A DNA stretch of 64,000 nt from Capsulimonadaceae bacterium. Its GTDB lineage: Bacteria; Armatimonadota; Armatimonadia; Armatimonadales; Capsulimonadaceae. The stretch is from positions 672,001-736,000 of the forward strand of contig OZ244065.1 in NCBI GenBank assembly GCA_965215505.1, given 5' to 3'. Position numbers and translations under genes: made by a program. Within the stretch, counting starts at the first letter, position 1, and every line of letters begins with the position of its first letter. Below, piece after piece: positions 4,389 through 34,800 of this stretch. A model generated the notes under the pieces. That model did no database searches. It was not told the DNA's origin and saw only the letters and a list, made by a program, of their open reading frames with translations.

Positions 4389-4781
4389 ATGTCACAGCCG
4401 CCGCCCTGGCCGCCGCAGCCCGGCGGGCAGGGGCCACAGTACCCGCCGCCGTATGGACAGTACCCGCCGCAGCGCCTGCTTCAGCCCGTCAACGGTGGGC
4501 TGATCCTGACTCTGGGCATCCTGGGGCTGCTTCTCTGCAACCTGCTCGGTCCGGTCGCGGCCGTCATGGGTGGCAATGCGGTCGCGGCGATTGCCCGTGG
4601 GGAGGCCGATCCAAACGAGCGCGGGTCAGCGAATGCTGGCCGGATTCTGGGGATCATCAGCACGGTCTGCCTGGTCTTGTGGGCGTTAGGCCTGGCCATC
4701 GCCGTTGCCAGCCCGGACTTCCGCCAGGGCTTCGCGCGGGGATTCACCCAGAGCTACCACCGCACGGCCCCGAACCCGTGA
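4389..4781 (+). CDS. DUF4190-like membrane protein with Pro/Gln-rich N-terminus
   Basis: PPPYGQYPPQ leader; ILTLGILGLLLC and AGRILGII transmembrane segments; SD GGAGG. Confidence 0.75.
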   Translation: MSQPPPWPPQPGGQGPQYPPPYGQYPPQRLLQPVNGGLILTLGILGLLLCNLLGPVAAVMGGNAVAAIARGEADPNERGSANAGRILGIISTVCLVLWALGLAIAVASPDFRQGFARGFTQSYHRTAPNP

Positions 4782-5638
4782 AGCCTCTCATCCAGTGTGT
4801 CCCCAACTTCAGCGAGGGCCGCCGGCCCGACGTCATCGCGGCCATTGTGGAGGCGGTGCGCGGGACGGCGGGTGTTCGGCTGGCGGACTGGAGCGCGGAC
4901 CCGGACCATAACCGGCTGGTAGTCACGTTCGTCGGCCCGCCCCCCGCCGTCCGCGAGGCCGCCCTGTCCGCCGCCGCCGTGGCCATCACGCGGATTGATC
5001 TGGGCAACCACGAAGGCGTTCACCCGCGCCTAGGCGCGCTGGACGTGCTGCCGTTCGTGCCGCTTTCGGGCTTGGCTCTAGCCGACTGCGCCGCCCTGGG
5101 CCGCGAGGTCGGGCAGGAGTTGGTGGCCCGGCACGGCCTGCCCGTGTTCCTCTACGAAGCCGCCGCACCCGAACCACGCTCCTTGCCACTTGTCCGCAAA
5201 GAAGCGTTCCAAACGCTGACGCCCGACTTCGGCCCGGCTATCCCCCACCCCACGGCTGGGGCCGCCGTCGTGGGGGCGCGTGGCCCGCTGATCGCCTACA
5301 ACGTCGTCCTCGCCGCGCCCGACCTGTCCATCGCCCGCGCCATCGCCCGCGAGCTGCGCGCCCTGCCAAATCTGCCCGGCGTGCGCGCGCTGGGCCTGCG
5401 CCTTCCCTCGCGCGGATTAACGCAGGTTTCGATGAACCTGACCCGCCCCGCCGACACGCCCCTGCTGTCCGTCTTCCGCCATGTCGAGGCGCGCGCCCTC
5501 GCCCTGGGCACGTCGGTCGTCGAGAGCGAGATCATCGGCGCGCTCCCCGGCCCCAGCGCCTTCGGCGTCCTGGCCGACGCGCTGCAAGCACCGGGCCTGA
5601 AGGCGGGGCAGGTATTATGGGAGGACTGGCCGGAGTAG
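4778..5638 (+). CDS. ftcD: glutamate formimidoyltransferase (FTCD N-terminal type)
   Basis: CVPNFSEGRR, DPDHNRLVVT, HEGVHPRLGALDVLPFVP, GARGPLIAYNV, QVSMNL; GTG start overlaps the upstream TGA. Confidence 0.9.
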   Translation: MKPLIQCVPNFSEGRRPDVIAAIVEAVRGTAGVRLADWSADPDHNRLVVTFVGPPPAVREAALSAAAVAITRIDLGNHEGVHPRLGALDVLPFVPLSGLALADCAALGREVGQELVARHGLPVFLYEAAAPEPRSLPLVRKEAFQTLTPDFGPAIPHPTAGAAVVGARGPLIAYNVVLAAPDLSIARAIARELRALPNLPGVRALGLRLPSRGLTQVSMNLTRPADTPLLSVFRHVEARALALGTSVVESEIIGALPGPSAFGVLADALQAPGLKAGQVLWEDWPE

Positions 5639-28042: not shown

Positions 28043-28134
28043 AGCCACAGCCTCTCAATCGGGCGACAAAGATATATTGGACACACGCAAGATTATAGCG
28101 CATAATGATCGTGTTTAGGCAGGAGGAGGCCGAC

Positions 28135-28929
28135 ATGAGCGAGACGACAGGAGCGCCAGTGCGCTCGGCGAAGGACCAGTTTGACAAACAGGCCGCCCAT
28201 TATGACAAGCAGTGGAACACCTGGAGTGAGGAGACTTTGGGCTGGCTTCTGGCGAACGCCGCCCCAAAGCCGACCGATTTCGTGCTGGACGTTGCGACCG
28301 GTACGGGCTTTACGGCCCTGGCCTTCGCCCCATTGGTCACGACCGTGATCGGCATGGACGTTTCGCCGGGGATGCTGGAACAGGCCCGCAAACAGGCCGG
28401 AGAGCGGAGGATCGCCAACGCCGTCTTCCAGGAAGGCGCGGCCGAGTCGCTGCCGTTCGGCGAGGGGGCTTTCGACATCGTAACCTGTCGGATCGCGCCG
28501 CACCACTTTTTGAGCGTCGAAAAGTTCCTAGAGGAAGCGGCCCGCGTCCTGAAGACGGGCGGGCGGCTGGCCCTAGTGGACACGGCCGTTCCCGACGACT
28601 CGCCCGAGGCGGCGGCCTGGCAGAACGAAGTAGAGGCCGTGCGCGACCCGTCTCATGTCCGCAACTACACGCCGCAGGAGTGGCGGACGATGGCCGAAGC
28701 GGCGGGCCTGACCGTGACCGAATGCGGCAGCGGCGGGGGCGGCATCACCATCCCCCTGTCCGACTGGATCGTCAAGGCTGGCTGCACGCCCGACCAAGCC
28801 GCCGAGGTCCGCCACCGCTTCGCCGACGCGCCCCAGAGCGCCCGGACGGCGTTCCAGATTGAAACGACGCCGGACGGCGGAACCGTTTTCACCTGGCAGC
28901 GCGTCACGCTCCTGGCCGTGAAGCCGTGA
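28135..28929 (+). CDS. class I SAM-dependent methyltransferase (YcgJ-like)
   Basis: VLDVATGTG, FDIVTCRIAPHHF, RDPSHVR; SD AGGAGG before ATG 28135. Confidence 0.9.
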   Translation: MSETTGAPVRSAKDQFDKQAAHYDKQWNTWSEETLGWLLANAAPKPTDFVLDVATGTGFTALAFAPLVTTVIGMDVSPGMLEQARKQAGERRIANAVFQEGAAESLPFGEGAFDIVTCRIAPHHFLSVEKFLEEAARVLKTGGRLALVDTAVPDDSPEAAAWQNEVEAVRDPSHVRNYTPQEWRTMAEAAGLTVTECGSGGGGITIPLSDWIVKAGCTPDQAAEVRHRFADAPQSARTAFQIETTPDGGTVFTWQRVTLLAVKP

Positions 28930-28980: not shown

Positions 28981-29799
28981 ATGCGCGCACGTTTTCTCGC
29001 TTTTACTCTGCTGCTGTCCCTGCTGGCAGTCTCCGCCGCCAAGGCCGCGCCGACGCAGCTCACCTGGTACGGACACTCGGCTTTTAAGATCACGACGCCT
29101 TCCGGCAAGGTCGTCCTGCTGGACCCCTGGATCACCAACCCGGCAAACAAGAACGGGGCCGCCGACCTGGCCGGCATCACGCGGGCCGACCTGATCCTGA
29201 TTACGCACGGTCACTTTGACCATGTCGGCGACTCGGTCGTCATCGCCACCAAGACCGGCGCCAAGCTGGTCGCCACCGGCGATCTGGCCGACGCGCTTGT
29301 CGCCTACGGCGGCTACCCGAAGGCGCAGGCGGGCATGGACACGCAGGGGAACTTCGGCGGCGAGCTTTCCTTGCTCGGCGGCGAGGTCAAAGTCCTGTTC
29401 GTCCCGGCGATCCACAGCTCGTCGGTCACGCCCCCGCCCGGCAGTACGGACACGAACCCGCACGCGGGCGGCAACCCCGGCGGGTTCGTCATCACCGTCG
29501 CGGGCGGCCCGACGTTTTATGACACCGGCGACACCGACGAGTACGCAGACATGGCGCTCATCCCGAAGGCGCACAAGATCGATGTCATGCTCTGCTGCAT
29601 CGGCGACCACTACACGATGGGACCCGTCCGCGCCGCCGACGCGGTGAAGATGGTCGGCCCGCGCGTCGTCATCCCGTGCCACTACGGCACGTTTCCTATC
29701 CTGGTCGGGACGCCCGCCGAGTTCAGCGACGCCCTGAAGGCGAACGGCTCCAAAGCAAAGATGACCGTGATGAGCGTTGATCAGACGCTCACTTTCTGA
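28981..29799 (+). CDS. secreted metallo-beta-lactamase-fold hydrolase (UPF0173-like)
   Basis: WYGHSAF, THGHFDHVGD, GDT, PCHYGTF; signal peptide. Confidence 0.88.
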   Translation: MRARFLAFTLLLSLLAVSAAKAAPTQLTWYGHSAFKITTPSGKVVLLDPWITNPANKNGAADLAGITRADLILITHGHFDHVGDSVVIATKTGAKLVATGDLADALVAYGGYPKAQAGMDTQGNFGGELSLLGGEVKVLFVPAIHSSSVTPPPGSTDTNPHAGGNPGGFVITVAGGPTFYDTGDTDEYADMALIPKAHKIDVMLCCIGDHYTMGPVRAADAVKMVGPRVVIPCHYGTFPILVGTPAEFSDALKANGSKAKMTVMSVDQTLTF

Positions 29800-29811
29800 G
29801 GAAAAAGACCC

Positions 29812-31218
29812 ATGCCGAAAACGATGTTCGAGAAGATCTGGGACGCCCACGTCGTCCGCGAGGAAGCGGGTCAGCCCGCCCTGCTCTATGTGGACCTGCA
29901 TCTGGTCCATGAGGTGACCTCGCCGCAGGCTTTCGAGGGCCTGCGCCTGACCGGGCGCAAGGTCCGCCGCCCGGACCTGACGGTCGCGACGATGGACCAC
30001 AACGTCCCGACGACCAGCCGCTCGCTGCCCATTCTGGACCAGATCTCCAAGAAGCAGATGGAGGCCTTGGCCGAGAACTGCCGCGAGTTCGGCGTCACGC
30101 TCTACGACATCCATTCCAAGCGGCAGGGCATCGTCCACGTCATCGGCCCCGAGCTTGGGCTGACCCAGCCCGGCATGACCATTGTCTGCGGCGACAGCCA
30201 CACCAGTACCCACGGCGCGTTCGGCGCATTGGCCTTCGGCATCGGCACGAGCGAGGTGGAACACGTCCTGGCGACCCAATGCCTGCCGCAGTCACGCCCC
30301 AAGACGATGGAGATCCGCGTCAATGGCGAGTTAGGTATGGGCGTCACGGCCAAAGACATCATCCTCGCCATCATCGGCAAGATCGGCACGGACGGCGCGA
30401 CGGGCTACGTCGTCGAGTACACGGGTGAGGCCATCCGCGCCCTCTCGATGGAGGGCCGGATGACCGTCTGCAACATGAGCATCGAGGCGGGCGCGCGGGC
30501 CGGCATGATCGCCCCGGACGACAAGACGTTCGCCTACATCCAGGGCAAGCCGTCCGCCCCCGCCGGTGAGCAGTGGGAGGAGGCGCTGACCGCCTGGCGC
30601 GCGCTGCCGACCGACGCGGGTGCCTCCTATGACACGCTCGTCGAGATGGACGCCGCCGAGATCGCCCCGCACGTTTCGTGGGGCACCAGCCCCGGCATGG
30701 TGGTCCCGATCACCGCTTCGGTCCCCTCCCCCAACGACTACGCCGACCCCGCCGACCGCCGGGCGACCGAGCGCGCCTTGGAGTACATGGGGCTAGGCGC
30801 GGGCGTCCCGATGCGCGGGATCGAACTCGACACCGTCTTCATCGGCTCCTGCACGAACGGCCGGATCGAGGACCTGCGGGCGGCCGCGTCCGTCCTGAAG
30901 GGCCACACGGTCCGGGCGGGCCTGCGCGCCCTGGTAGTCCCCGGCTCGGTCCAGGTCAAGCTCCAGGCCGAAGCCGAGGGCCTGGACCAAGTCTTCAAGG
31001 ACGCTGGGTTCGACTGGCGCGAGGCCGGCTGCTCCATGTGCCTCGGCATGAACCCGGACATCTTGCAGCCCGGCGAGCGCTGCGCGTCCACCTCCAACCG
31101 CAACTTCGAGGGCCGCCAGGGCAAGGGCGGGCGGACCCACCTCGTCAGCCCCCAGATGGCGGCGGCGGCGGCCATCGAGGGGCATCTGGTTGACATTCGA
31201 GAGTGGGAGAAGAACTGA
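29812..31218 (+). CDS. leuC: 3-isopropylmalate dehydratase large subunit
   Basis: [48 protein letters not shown]. Confidence 0.98.
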
Positions 31219-31245
31219 TACTGTGCGGAGGCGAAGGAGTGCCGG

Positions 31246-31632
31246 ATGCCCTCATTTGAATTCGTGCGGCTAGGCATTCCTTGCACAGTGCAGACCAGGA
31301 ACAAGAGCCGCTTGGACAACTACAAGCGCGACGTGCGGAGGGCCGCCACAGCACTCTGGCCGGGTGATGTTCTTCCTCTGGCCGTTCCGGTCAGCGTCAC
31401 CATCAGCTACTACTACACGAGCGACGCGCTGGACGTGGACAACATCATCAAGCCAATCCTGGACCAATTGAAGGGTCTGGTTTACCAAGATGATTTGCAG
31501 GTGATTAGAGTCGTCAGTCAGAAGAGCCTGGTACGCACTGAGGGCGTAGCGAGTACCAACGCCTCCTCGGTGCTGACGGGCGGGTTAAGGTCGAAGGACG
31601 ATTTTCTGCACGTCCTGGTAGAATGGGAGTGA
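31246..31632 (+). CDS. RusA family crossover junction endodeoxyribonuclease
   Basis: DVDNIIKPILDQLKGLVYQDDLQV catalytic motif; SD AAGGAG. Confidence 0.85.
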   Translation: MPSFEFVRLGIPCTVQTRNKSRLDNYKRDVRRAATALWPGDVLPLAVPVSVTISYYYTSDALDVDNIIKPILDQLKGLVYQDDLQVIRVVSQKSLVRTEGVASTNASSVLTGGLRSKDDFLHVLVEWE

Positions 31633-31643
31633 GGGAAACACTG

Positions 31644-32039
31644 ATGCAAACGATGATCGCGCCATCGCCGACTGTCCGCCCCCTAGAAGCCGCCGAAATC
31701 CGGCAGCACATCTCAGAGGGAGGGCAACTGATCGCTTCGGGGCAACGAGTGGCTGCCGCCGTCCGGCTCTGGACAGCGTTTGAGGCCGCCGTTCGTTTCT
31801 CACTGACCGAGCTAGGGCAAAGGACTGACGATCCCATATGGATCAGTGATACTCCCTACGGACTATCGACGCAGGCGGTCGCCTACGGCGTCATTGACCC
31901 GGAAGACCGCGACGTATTGCTGCGCTTCCTGCCCATGCGAGACGCAGCCGCACACGGCAACGCAGAAGCCATTGATGCCAGCGTACTTGAGGATGTTAGC
32001 CGGCTCGCCGAGCGGACGTTGGACGAGATGGGGCAGTGA
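31644..32039 (+). CDS. HEPN-like domain protein
   Basis: Helical pattern AAAVRLWTAFEAAVR; Rx4H motif RDAAAHG; alternative starts at 31623/31629. Confidence 0.6.
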   Translation: MQTMIAPSPTVRPLEAAEIRQHISEGGQLIASGQRVAAAVRLWTAFEAAVRFSLTELGQRTDDPIWISDTPYGLSTQAVAYGVIDPEDRDVLLRFLPMRDAAAHGNAEAIDASVLEDVSRLAERTLDEMGQ

Positions 32040-32067
32040 AAGGGGAAGGCCCGAGAGAAGCAGGCAT

Positions 32068-32640
32068 ATGATGACCGGCCCCATCATCTACCCGCCGCAC
32101 CGGATTACCTTTGAGCAGTATATGGCTGAGGAGCAGGTCAAGCGGCGGTACGACATTGTCAACGGCGTCCGCGTTTTCGCCGTGCCGCCGAGTTTGCGTC
32201 ATCAAGATATTCTGGGCAACTTCCTGTCACTATTCCGAGATTATGCGGATCAACATGGCTATGCGACGTTGTTTTCGCTGTTCGACGTGCTGATTTCCTG
32301 GGAGCCGTTCTGCACCCGGCAGTCGGACGTGATGCTTGTCAGCAAGACCCGCTTACAGTCACGTAAGGACTGCGAACCGTTGTCCATCGCCCCGGAACTA
32401 GTCGTGGAAATTCTCTCGTCAATTGACCGCAAACTGGCGTTGGAAAGCAAGCTTCAGGATTATCACACGATAGGCGTTCGAGAATGCTGGGTGGTAAGGC
32501 CTGAAAGACGAACGATTGAGGTGATGTGTGCTACCACCGAAGGGTTCAAGGCCGTACAGACATACGGTGCAGGGGAAGCCGCCCATTCACGCACTTGCCA
32601 TAACTTGGCGGTGTCGGTTGACGAAGTCTTGTCAGTATAG
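32068..32640 (+). CDS. Uma2 family endonuclease
   Basis: YDIVNG, PSLRHQ, QSDV, APELVVEILS, KLQDYHTIGVRECWVVRP. Confidence 0.9.
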   Translation: MMTGPIIYPPHRITFEQYMAEEQVKRRYDIVNGVRVFAVPPSLRHQDILGNFLSLFRDYADQHGYATLFSLFDVLISWEPFCTRQSDVMLVSKTRLQSRKDCEPLSIAPELVVEILSSIDRKLALESKLQDYHTIGVRECWVVRPERRTIEVMCATTEGFKAVQTYGAGEAAHSRTCHNLAVSVDEVLSV

Positions 32641-32643
32641 GCG

Positions 32644-32892
32644 ATGAACAAAAAAGCGACAGGCTTTGGCGGCGGTTGTCAGGAACTTGGGATCGTCGCA
32701 GCCGTTTTCGTCTGCGTACTCACATTCACGGCGGCCCTTGTCTTTGATCTTCATGCGAGTATGCCGCTGCCAAGTGCGGCCTTTCATGCGCTGTTGGCGG
32801 CAGTCGTCGCGTTTGGCCTCATCGCACTGCTTTGGACTATAGTTTACGCCGCTGTCCGCCTTTTTAGCGGCAAGATCGACGGAGGGATTTAA
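32644..32892 (+). CDS. small two-TM hypothetical membrane protein
   Basis: 82 aa with two hydrophobic helices; packed between Uma2 and leuD. Confidence 0.55.
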
Positions 32893-32897
32893 AACTC

Positions 32898-33512
32898 ATG
32901 GAACCGTTCACGAAACTCACCGGCCTTGCGGCCCCCCTGGACCGGGTCAACGCGGACACCGACCAGATCATTCCTAAGCAGTTCCTCAAACGCATCGAGC
33001 GGACGGGCTTCGGGAAGTTCCTGTTCTTCGACTGGCGGTACTTCGCCGACGGCGAGACGCCGAACCCGGAGTTCGAGCTGAACCAGCCGCAGTATCAGGG
33101 CGCGACGATCCTGATCACGGGCAAGAACTTCGGCTGCGGGTCGTCGCGCGAACACGCGCCGTGGGCGCTGGCGGACTATGGGTTCAAGGCGATTTTGGCC
33201 CCCTCGTTCGCGGACATCTTCTACAACAACTGCTTCAAGAATGGGATGCTGCCGGTCACGCTGCCGGAGGAGACCATCACGATGCTCCTGGAGCGGGGGA
33301 GGACGCCAGGCTACCAGATGACGGTGGACCTGGAGAACCTGACCATTTCAGACGAGGAGGGCTTCTCCACCCCGTTCGAGGTGGATGCCTTCCGGCGTCA
33401 CTGCCTGCTCCACGGGCTGGACGACATCGGGCTGACCTTGCAGCATGAGCCGGACATCACGGCCTATGAGGCGAAGCGGCCCGCGTGGACGCGGAGCGCG
33501 GCGGCGGCGTAA
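32898..33512 (+). CDS. leuD: 3-isopropylmalate dehydratase small subunit
   Basis: [44 protein letters not shown]. Confidence 0.98.
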
Positions 33513-33522
33513 TAGCCAGTCG

Positions 33523-33546
33523 GGGCGCGGCGAATGCCGCGCCCTT
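33523..33546. terminator. hairpin between convergent leuD and sbcD
   Basis: GGGCGCGGC-GAAT-GCCGCGCCC stem-loop. Confidence 0.6.
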
Positions 33547-33549
33547 CGT

Positions 33550-34800
33550 CTATTTTAGCGCCTCTTCGGCCTCTAGCTCGCGCAGCAACGGCTCGGCATG
33601 GGCGACGAGTTCATCTTTGCGCGGGCGCAGGGTGTCCCGCGTCTCGCAGTAAATGGCGAGGGCACCCAGGGGGTCGAGCGACTCGGTGAGCATCTTGGAG
33701 CGGACGGCGTCGGTGTCCCGGACGATCTCTTTGTGGATCGAGACGGTCAGGTGGCTGGCGTTCAGGGCGGCGCGGATGTCGGCTTCGCGCAGGGCGGCCT
33801 GCTGCTCGGACTTGATCTTGTAGGCGACCTTGACGATGGCCTCCTCGATGGTGTGCTTCTTGATGGCCGCGATGATCGTGTCGGTGGGGTCGTCGCCCGC
33901 CTCGGTCGCGTCCACCTCGATCTCCACGAAAGGGCGCGTCTTGACCCGGACGTGCTTGACCTCGGTGTCGCCTTTCAGCAGGTCTACCAGGGCGAAGCCC
34001 TTCTCCTCCGACCGCTCCCCGAAATCAATCCGCTCGATGCTGCCGCTGTAGACGACGGGCGGCTGCTGGCCTTTGTGCAAGTCCTGATAGCGGTGGATGT
34101 GGCCCAGGGCGACGTAGTCGAACGGCTTTTGTGTCAGCACGGATAGGGACACTTCCGGCTCATTCGTCAGATAGCCGACCTGGTTCGCGCTGAGTTTGGC
34201 GTTGGCGACCGAGAAGTGACCCATCAGGATCGTCGGCAGATCCGGGTCGCAGGAGGCGGCCAGGGCGTTGATCCCCGCCGTGTAGCGATCTACGATGAGC
34301 TGCGTGGTCCCCTGGACGCCCTGGTCTTTGTTCTCCTCGCGGGACAGGACGAGGCTCTTGATGAGGTACGGCATGGCGGCGATCTGGACGCTCGCCCCGC
34401 CCTTCGTCTCCACGACCGCCATGTCGGGGTGGTCGAAGACGCGCAAGCGTTCGCCGGCCAGTTCCCCAAAGATCTCGATGGCGTTGGCCCGGCCCTTCGT
34501 GTTCGGGATGTCGTGGTTCCCGGCCAGCATGACGACCGGGACGCCCGCCTTGGTCAGCTTGGCGAGACACTGGGCGAACTCGCGCTGGTGGGTCTGGTTC
34601 GGGTCGCGCGTCTTGTAGGCGTCCCCGGCGAACACGGCCAGTTCTACCCCGGCTTCCAGGGCGATGGTGATAGCTTCCGACAGGGCGTTGCGGAAGTCCA
34701 CGAGCCGCGAGGGCAGGCCGGTCTGCGGGTCGAAGCGCCCGTAGTTCTCGACGCCGAAGTGAACATCGCCGAAGTGCATGAGGCGGATGGGTTTGGGCAT
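33550..34800 (-). CDS. sbcD: SbcD/Mre11 family nuclease
   Basis: GDVHFG, FAGDAY, GNHD, GHF, DYVALGHIH, YSGSIERIDFGE. Confidence 0.92.
   Translation of the reverse strand: MPKPIRLMHFGDVHFGVENYGRFDPQTGLPSRLVDFRNALSEAITIALEAGVELAVFAGDAYKTRDPNQTHQREFAQCLAKLTKAGVPVVMLAGNHDIPNTKGRANAIEIFGELAGERLRVFDHPDMAVVETKGGASVQIAAMPYLIKSLVLSREENKDQGVQGTTQLIVDRYTAGINALAASCDPDLPTILMGHFSVANAKLSANQVGYLTNEPEVSLSVLTQKPFDYVALGHIHRYQDLHKGQQPPVVYSGSIERIDFGERSEEKGFALVDLLKGDTEVKHVRVKTRPFVEIEVDATEAGDDPTDTIIAAIKKHTIEEAIVKVAYKIKSEQQAALREADIRAALNASHLTVSIHKEIVRDTDAVRSKMLTESLDPLGALAIYCETRDTLRPRKDELVAHAEPLLRELEAEEALK

Follow-up and report, generated by a model that had tools for sequence, protein, structure and literature searches.

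A RusA-like nuclease gene and its putative HEPN-fold partner between leuC and leuD in a Capsulimonadaceae bacterium

The genes between leuC and leuD

We analysed a window of 64,000 nucleotides from a Capsulimonadaceae bacterium of the phylum Armatimonadota (assembly GCA_965215505.1, contig OZ244065.1, positions 672,001 to 736,000; coordinates below are those of the window unless a locus is named), in which four small genes lie between leuC and leuD (encoding the large and the small subunit of isopropylmalate isomerase, respectively). The first two of these, a RusA-family junction endonuclease-like gene (31246-31632, 128 amino acids) and a gene for a protein with a predicted HEPN fold (31644-32039, 131 amino acids, with an alternative ATG at 31623), are the main subject of this analysis. 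They are followed by a Uma2-family PD-(D/E)xK nuclease-like gene (32068-32640, 190 amino acids; Pfam Uma2, E 2.6e-22) and by a gene for a small predicted membrane protein with two hydrophobic segments (32644-32892, 82 amino acids). The flanks are formed by leuC (29812-31218; Pfam Aconitase, E 5.4e-186) upstream and leuD (32898-33512; Pfam Aconitase_C, E 1.9e-41) downstream. All six genes are encoded on the plus strand, with successive gaps of only 27, 11, 28, 3 and 5 nt, and use of the alternative start would turn the 11-nt spacing of the RusA-like and HEPN genes into an overlap of 10 nt.

The original prediction, made from the sequence by itself, had described four tightly packed, co-oriented genes that are less GC-rich than their flanks, and both observations held. 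The overall GC content is 0.57 for the insert versus 0.68 for leuC and 0.64 for leuD, and the GC content at third codon positions (GC3) is 0.58-0.73 for the insert genes versus 0.92 and 0.91 for leuC and leuD. Homologues of all four open reading frames (ORFs) were found at the same locus in other genomes, which makes them more than chance ORFs. The mobile-element check compared 38 of the 46 ORFs of at least 150 amino acids in the region 18.5-45.7 kb with Pfam; no integrase, transposase or phage family was matched, in agreement with the earlier impression that such genes are absent nearby, and no nucleotidyltransferase family was found among the ORFs given to Pfam around the insert. The search for repeats flanking the insert yielded only one 16-nt direct repeat, which is at chance level.

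No sigma-70-like promoter site was found between 29500 and 33800, and no Rfam leader or riboswitch between 27000 and 34500. The only strong terminator-like hairpin in 29500-33800 (33522-33545, plus strand; a 10-bp stem with nine G-C pairs and a T-rich tail) is located directly after leuD. The lack of an internal promoter-like site and of a strong terminator in the insert fits transcription by read-through, and the insert genes probably share the promoter of leuC and leuD. A class I methyltransferase gene (28105-28929, plus strand) and a gene for a metallo-beta-lactamase (MBL)-fold protein immediately precede leuC in the same orientation, and beyond these lies a divergent gene encoding a LysR-type regulator. 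On the other side, a gene for an SbcD/Mre11-like phosphoesterase (Pfam Metallophos; 33550-34800, minus strand) is oriented towards leuD, and the two genes have the terminator region at 33522-33545 in common.

The RusA-like protein and its putative HEPN partner

The AlphaFold2 model of the 131-amino-acid protein (pLDDT 88.6, pTM 0.82) consists of five helices. HEPN structures formed the top of the Foldseek list obtained with this model (1wwp, HepT, 2hsb and SO_3166; E 0.013-0.07, TM score 0.52-0.69), and VIA-align gave a Z of 12.3 to 2hsb (116 residues, root-mean-square deviation 2.5), of 12.2 to the HEPN domain of Csm6 and of 11.4 to HepT, values to be read in the light of the fact that helical bundles can reach a Z of about 13 by arrangement alone. 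None of the curated HEPN-clan hidden Markov models (HMMs) reached its cut-off, the best being PaREP1 (E 0.03, 14.7 bits versus a cut-off of 24.4), a family that Anantharaman et al. 2013 (PMC3710099) place in the HEPN-T clade. Considering the uniform list of HEPN matches and the motif described below, HEPN is the best reading of the modelled fold, in line with the HEPN-like second gene of the original prediction.

A protein search with the second gene returned 32 relatives of 84-155 amino acids that are free of Pfam domains. In genomes of the same order, the homologous region was found to be the C-terminal half of a protein of 212-250 amino acids, and we will refer to the two kinds as short and long forms. 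The N-terminal half of the long form corresponds to Pfam PF18743 ('REase_AHJR-like'; E 6.5e-17 to 6e-25), which is carried by 25 of 25 homologues of one long form. Three residues of the long forms are invariant (D46, R183 and H188) and three others nearly so (E59, N184 and G189), which together constitute a PD...E.K-type nuclease motif and an RNxxxHG motif. The long-form model has an alpha-beta-beta-beta-alpha-beta core, then a HEPN bundle, and gives weak matches to the Hjc and Hje resolvases (E 0.018-0.05). By sequence, the partner profile reached Hjc (2eo0) among the solved structures only at E 0.29, and the RiboL-PSP, DUF4145, Csm6-HEPN and HepT-like HMMs all remained under their cut-offs for the long forms. 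A fusion of an AHJR-like REase with HEPN is listed in Table 1 of Anantharaman et al. (PMC3710099), and the long forms resemble that entry in their match to PF18743 and in a C-terminal HEPN domain with an Rx4H motif.

The protein of the window differs from that entry in lacking any AHJR domain. It aligns to the C-terminal HEPN half only, and there is no room for an AHJR-like domain between the stop of the RusA-like gene and the start of the second gene. As judged from these alignments, the window protein is a truncated derivative that has lost the N-terminal Hjc-like nuclease domain. The Rx4H motif noted in the original prediction is present (RDAAAH at residues 99-104, with R99 and H104), but in the partner alignment both R and H are kept in only 9 of the 29 short forms, the one of the window included, versus 22 of 22 long forms, and the residue after R is D in the window and N in 21 of the 22 long forms. 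The loss of Rx4H from most short forms makes an active RNase toxin doubtful in the lineage of the window. The reading frame has stayed open in all 29 short forms, at a comparable length (116-155 amino acids), the copies within the genus have diverged to 46-64% identity, and no relatives were found in metagenome contigs searched with the 131-amino-acid protein. Long forms from the same genus have Q instead of K as the last residue of the three-residue nuclease motif (the nuclease triad). One short HEPN protein (genome G023; locus L015, 755-1486, minus strand) carries about 110 extra C-terminal residues (243 amino acids in total), and this extra part has no Pfam match.

The RusA-like protein shows a clear match to the RusA family, both in Pfam (PF05866; E 1.1e-10, 42.6 bits versus a cut-off of 22.8) and in PHROG (140, RusA-like; E 4.6e-11). 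Residues D63, D65, N66, K69, D73 and D83, the D-x-D-N...K...D...DD pattern that the original prediction had already recognised, are invariant in 12 of 12 aligned relatives, and a seven-position version (DDNKDDD) is identical in 70 of the 80 loci of the survey described below. These acidic and lysine residues are putative equivalents of the catalytic residues of Escherichia coli RusA. The likeness to E. coli RusA (of the DLP12 prophage) and to the phage RusA-like Holliday junction resolvases (PF05866; PHROGs 140 and 34) comprises the profile matches, that to Pfam above the curated cut-off, and the acidic pattern conserved in the subfamily. Unlike these, the gene of the window is chromosomal and located outside any prophage, its subfamily has a partner gene directly downstream in 78 of 80 loci, and its sequence is too divergent to connect to the known structures: no solved RusA structure was reached by phmmer with the window protein or by the RusA alignment profile.

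When the RusA-like protein and the 131-amino-acid protein were modelled together, each with its alignment, the predicted complex obtained a score of 0.83, versus 0.01 for the best of three controls. Among 157 solved complexes 116 attained this mark, as did 2 of 215 mismatched pairs. At least 96% of the contacts are common to the three runs, with a pLDDT of the partner of at least 84. We know of no solved complex of the RusA-HEPN kind, which makes it unlikely that the prediction recalls a known structure. The predicted interface involves residues 10-23, 57-63, 67 and 119 of the RusA-like protein and residues 53-89, 128 and 131 of the partner, and on the RusA side it adjoins the conserved D63 and D65. 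In the short forms, the mean majority fraction is 0.86 at the interface positions (n=25) versus 0.68 at the rest (n=95; one-sided Mann-Whitney p 1.5e-5, a value that is descriptive only, the sequences being related), and positions 99-104 are poorly conserved.

Occurrence of the pair in other genomes

For the survey, one genome per species was scanned with the RusA alignment and the pattern D[VN]DN[IVL][ILT]KP[IV]; 123 relatives were confirmed and the best 80 loci were kept. The ORF directly downstream of RusA matches AHJR and/or HEPN profiles in 78 of these 80 loci, and the two exceptions are truncated RusA matches. Of these 78 pairs, 52 have RusA and its partner spaced by -4 or -1 nt, and in 66 the spacing lies between -20 and +40 nt. 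A reverse search of 301 Armatimonadota genomes found RusA directly upstream of 7 of 7 two-domain partners. The pairing of RusA with HEPN put forward in the original prediction is thus a recurrent one, and we refer to the cassette, which is unnamed and defined here from the 80 loci, as RusA + AHJR-HEPN. Of the 78 partners, 66 retain R and H, and 40 retain the D-E-K triad. The partner profile matched 3,420 representatives of 50%-identity clusters at E <= 1e-3, of which 885 at E <= 1e-30.

The carriers of the 80 loci belong, by the titles of their records, to about 17 phyla (e.g. Cyanobacteriota, Bacteroidota, Pseudomonadota, Bacillota, Chloroflexota, Acidobacteriota, Myxococcota and Planctomycetota) and include one metagenome-assembled genome (MAG) of Nitrososphaera. 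In the RusA tree these phyla are mixed on short branches, which indicates horizontal transfer. A query with a cyanobacterial partner found no match among 50,697 phage records, whereas large plasmids yielded five that were full-length. A Ti plasmid carries the pair beside ligD, imuA and a Y-family polymerase gene, under the NCBI annotations 'RusA family crossover junction endodeoxyribonuclease' and 'HepT-like ribonuclease domain-containing protein'. In several loci the pair lies between or next to housekeeping genes, for instance between the E2 and E3 genes of 2-oxoacid dehydrogenase (L123; L106 and L111 likewise have E2 upstream), between aldehyde dehydrogenase and RpiA (L102 and L110; RpiA is also found downstream in L078) and after ArgZ (L107 and L122). 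Other loci adjoin an integrase, a YoeB toxin, HerA, a STAND NTPase or another HEPN protein. The GC3 of the pair is below that of the flanking ORFs in 65 of the 80 loci.

Several variants of the arrangement were observed. In an alphaproteobacterial MAG (L078, 4079-5104, plus strand), RusA, AHJR-like and HEPN parts are contained in a single ORF of 341 amino acids, which may reflect either a true fusion of the cassette genes or a faulty assembly, and which points the same way as the predicted association of RusA and HEPN. In Neobacillus (L067, plus strand) the partner is split into an AHJR-only ORF (4405-4695, 96 amino acids) and a HEPN-only ORF (4695-5045, 116 amino acids) with abutting stop and start, and in Paenibacillus (L065) the AHJR part alone was detected. 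Some Armatimonadaceae genomes have, away from leuC, a pair of another kind (L016, L017, L023, L082 and L083), which combines RusA with an AHJR-only protein of 108-117 amino acids without HEPN and in which the nuclease triad is altered (to D-L-R in L082 and L083). The partners in Bacteroidota (L063, L070, L076, L093 and L096; about 4405-5350) measure about 314 amino acids, some 90 more than the usual 220-230.

The RusA + AHJR-HEPN pair is apparently undescribed. No model of PADLOC-DB 2.0 matches the RusA-like protein, the 131-amino-acid protein or the membrane protein, and the long forms gave only weak matches to CARF-HEPN or Cas4 (E of at least 0.0028). No description of the pair was found in full-text literature searches, and the main text of Anantharaman et al. 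(PMC3710099) makes no mention of RusA. The pair resembles the HEPN-MNT (HepT-MntA) pairs, in which MNT is a nucleotidyltransferase, in being a two-gene unit with the HEPN gene second and in that the HEPN fold of the window protein is closest to the HepT/SO_3166 toxins and free-standing HEPN proteins (Z 10.9-12.3). It differs from them in that the upstream gene encodes a RusA-family nuclease, in that the neighbours are RusA and Uma2 genes without a nucleotidyltransferase and in that its matches to the Pfam HEPN clan are below the cut-offs.

The original prediction had gone further and proposed that the RusA-like and HEPN genes of the window may themselves be an undescribed toxin-antitoxin or anti-phage pair that uses the leucine operon promoter. 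In such a pair the Rx4H protein would cut RNA and RusA would be its partner or antidote. That the pair recurs in 78 of 80 loci and is unlisted bears out part of this proposal, and R99 and H104, the HEPN fold, the predicted binding to RusA and an upstream partner followed by HEPN, an order that resembles that of MNT-HEPN pairs, all agree with it. The same proposal has to accommodate a partner whose canonical Hjc-like nuclease domain is deleted here, a D after the R, the conservation of R and H in a minority of short forms as opposed to all long forms and the absence of a PADLOC match, and we consider an active pair of this kind in the window unlikely.

At the leuC-leuD site itself, 12 of the 80 loci have the pair after leuC, and these come exclusively from Armatimonadota (Capsulimonadaceae/Armatimonadales, Armatimonadaceae, Chthonomonadaceae and unclassified MAGs), with leuD next, either directly or after further genes. 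The pair was also found between leuC and leuD in genome G202. The 12 leuC-linked RusA sequences fall into one supported clade of 17 rows (98/84), and the copies of Armatimonadota that are located away from leuC form a different clade. The presence of the pair at this site in several Armatimonadota families speaks against a recent arrival of the insert. At the same time, the partner profile was matched in a small minority of the sampled Armatimonadota genomes (14 of 301), so that an ancient, vertically inherited pair must have been lost many times; the alternative is that it spread laterally to this one site. Judging from the tree and this distribution, the capture at leuC-leuD would be at least as old as the split of two Armatimonadales families, after which the pair was often lost or spread laterally at that site.

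Among 24 genomes of the genus, the leuC-leuD spacer holds extra genes in 20, leuC and leuD are adjacent in three (19-90 nt apart) and one is unresolved. RusA is present in seven of the 24, with a long partner in G001, G020 and G012 and a short one in G000, G003, G019 and G023, and a Uma2 gene lies in the spacer of 18. In G013 a SUKH-1 gene takes the place of RusA, beside a truncated short form. SUKH-1 (SMI1/KNR4) immunity-type genes lie in the spacer of G013 and G021 (L004, 897-1487, and L033, 2750-3337, minus strand; Pfam E 9.8e-11 and 4.6e-8), degenerate SUKH remnants in that of G005 and G010, and Uma2 fragments in that of G022. The spacer of this genus acts as a collecting place for small nuclease and immunity-type genes. 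In G017 (L035), also of this genus, the 1.5 kb preceding leuD gave no match to leuC, RusA or Uma2. Within the leuC-leuD spacer of an Armatimonadaceae locus (L099), the RusA pair is separated from two Uma2 genes by a Methyltransf_11/25 gene (4540-5403, plus strand), which belongs to the same Pfam families as the methyltransferase gene upstream of leuC in the window.

The third and fourth gene of the insert behave independently of the pair. The Uma2 protein of the window matches the Uma2 family and the PADLOC candidate PDC-S03 (E 3.3e-23), both over its full length; PDC-S03 itself is no more than a candidate in the PADLOC library, and nothing ties the Uma2 protein functionally to the first two genes. 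The spacer copy is one of 29 Uma2 places in this genome. In a quick Uma2 tree, the copies that directly precede leuD in most genomes of the genus and in two Armatimonadaceae-type loci form one lineage; the Uma2 of the window stands apart from it and groups with the copy of G008 (65.6% identity, the closest spacer copy), and G015 and G004 hold a third, so that at least three lineages occur in the spacer. The membrane protein has hydropathy peaks of 2.6 at residues 16-34 and 49-67 and no family match in Pfam, PADLOC, NCBIfam or PHROG, and NCBIfam gave nothing useful for any of the four insert proteins. G008 has a homologue at the same position (44% identical) and G015 a similar ORF of 82 amino acids. 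A two-transmembrane ORF thus lies between Uma2 and leuD in G000, G008 and G015 (32644-32892; L041, 1265-1495; L030, 2119-2367, minus strand), and its product may be a partner of Uma2. The description of all four genes as a single cassette had to be rejected, since Uma2 and the membrane gene are distributed independently within the genus; these two genes, and SUKH in relatives, are separate additions that stand outside the RusA pair.

The patchiness within the genus could also mean that the insert is functionless cargo, that is, tolerated remnants of selfish genes in a transcription unit that are heading for loss. The few genomes with RusA, the three clean leuC-leuD junctions, the SUKH remnant of G005, the Uma2 fragments of G022 and the low GC3 of the insert can all be read in this way. 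We nevertheless hold it to be rather improbable, considering that the 29 short forms have kept an open frame, that the predicted RusA-binding surface is selectively conserved and that the RusA motif is invariant among the aligned relatives and nearly so among the 80 loci.

A third possibility is that the pair is an accessory of DNA repair or recombination, with RusA as a back-up junction resolvase that is targeted or regulated by its partner. The almost always intact active-site pattern of RusA, the ligD, imuA and Y-family polymerase genes beside the pair on the Ti plasmid, the SbcD-like gene just downstream in the window and the Hjc-like N-terminal domain of the partner are compatible with such a function. 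RuvC, however, is encoded by 22 of the 24 genomes, that of the window included, and RusA was not found in 17 of them; moreover, the invariant Rx4H of the long forms points to an RNase, for which repair has no obvious need, and the intermixed phyla in the RusA tree indicate horizontal transfer. A repair role is thus the less likely one, and as an explanation of the pair we regard it as quite doubtful. The presence of RuvC in 22 of 24 genomes also led us to reject RusA as the main resolvase of a RuvC-less lineage.

The position of the pair between linked genes in several lineages (leuC and leuD, E2 and E3, aldehyde dehydrogenase and RpiA, and also downstream of ArgZ) is reminiscent of homing. 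Free-standing homing endonuclease genes lie between conserved genes of phages, for instance the seg and mob genes of T4. They share with the insert that nuclease genes without a promoter of their own lie between conserved co-oriented genes and are patchy among relatives. One could therefore imagine selfish nucleases that target the spacers between co-oriented housekeeping genes and are copied in by repair, and the contents of the spacer, all nucleases and with at least three Uma2 lineages in the same place, would fit. The RusA sequences of each context, however, group in one clade, as would be expected if the pair had been inserted once and then inherited, the insert lacks flanking repeats above chance level and most of the 80 loci are in unrelated contexts. 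We regard homing as very improbable.

Origin and possible role of the pair

The reading that we favour, with a confidence slightly better than even, is that the first two genes are a degenerate copy of a widespread cassette that was captured early at leuC-leuD and of which the partner has decayed to a subunit that docks on RusA. The cassette consists of a RusA-family junction endonuclease gene followed, usually with overlapping stop and start, by a gene for a partner that combines an Hjc-like PD-(D/E)xK domain (AHJR-like) with HEPN. By the split of the two Armatimonadales families it would have been captured between leuC and leuD, to be carried with the operon since. In the lineage of the window a deletion would then have taken the nuclease domain of the partner, and the catalytic pair of HEPN would have come under relaxed constraint, selection still maintaining the active site of RusA and, on HEPN, the surface predicted to bind next to it. 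The present state is most likely an intact RusA in complex with a mostly non-catalytic HEPN subunit, which may regulate or restrain it. The ancestral cassette was most likely a nuclease-based conflict module, either toxin-antitoxin-like or acting in abortive defence, and the Uma2 and small membrane protein genes would be later, separate additions.

Several observations weigh against this reading. The insert genes have a much lower GC3 than leuC and leuD, which is unexpected for genes that settled there long ago; the clade of leuC-linked RusA sequences contains five rows from outside the Armatimonadota and several long branches; the partner is scarce among the 301 Armatimonadota genomes; and RusA, not found in 17 of the 24 genomes of the genus, is dispensable there. 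The copy of the window still holds R99 and H104 and could still be an RNase. The fold matches to HEPN are weak by Foldseek E-value (0.013 or worse), in addition to the reservation on VIA-align given above, the link to E. coli RusA runs through profile HMMs only and the complex is a model from unpaired alignments that we built ourselves.

A bolder version of the favoured reading is tentative, and we put it at clearly less than even. It states that RusA + AHJR-HEPN is an undescribed, widespread nuclease complex with HEPN beside the RusA active site, and that it constitutes a new toxin-antitoxin or abortive-defence module. Such modules would have been captured repeatedly in operons (between leuC and leuD, between E2 and E3 and between aldehyde dehydrogenase and RpiA), followed by decay of the partner to a non-catalytic RusA-binding subunit, as in the window. 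Independently of this, the leuC-leuD spacer of the genus may be a true hotspot that recruits nuclease and immunity genes (Uma2, SUKH-1 and small membrane proteins).

If the pair is a working conflict module, a junction-specific DNA nuclease would join the known partners of HEPN RNases, and a cassette with thousands of members would be added to the systems that await testing. The natural series from a full partner, via an altered nuclease triad and a deleted domain, to the loss of R and H shows what selection keeps in a cassette trapped within an essential operon, and it predicts a regulatory RusA-HEPN complex that can be tested with two small proteins. The leuC-leuD spacer, finally, indicates that an operon for the two subunits of one enzyme tolerates repeated gene capture, which bears on how selfish genes find landing sites that are both safe and expressed.

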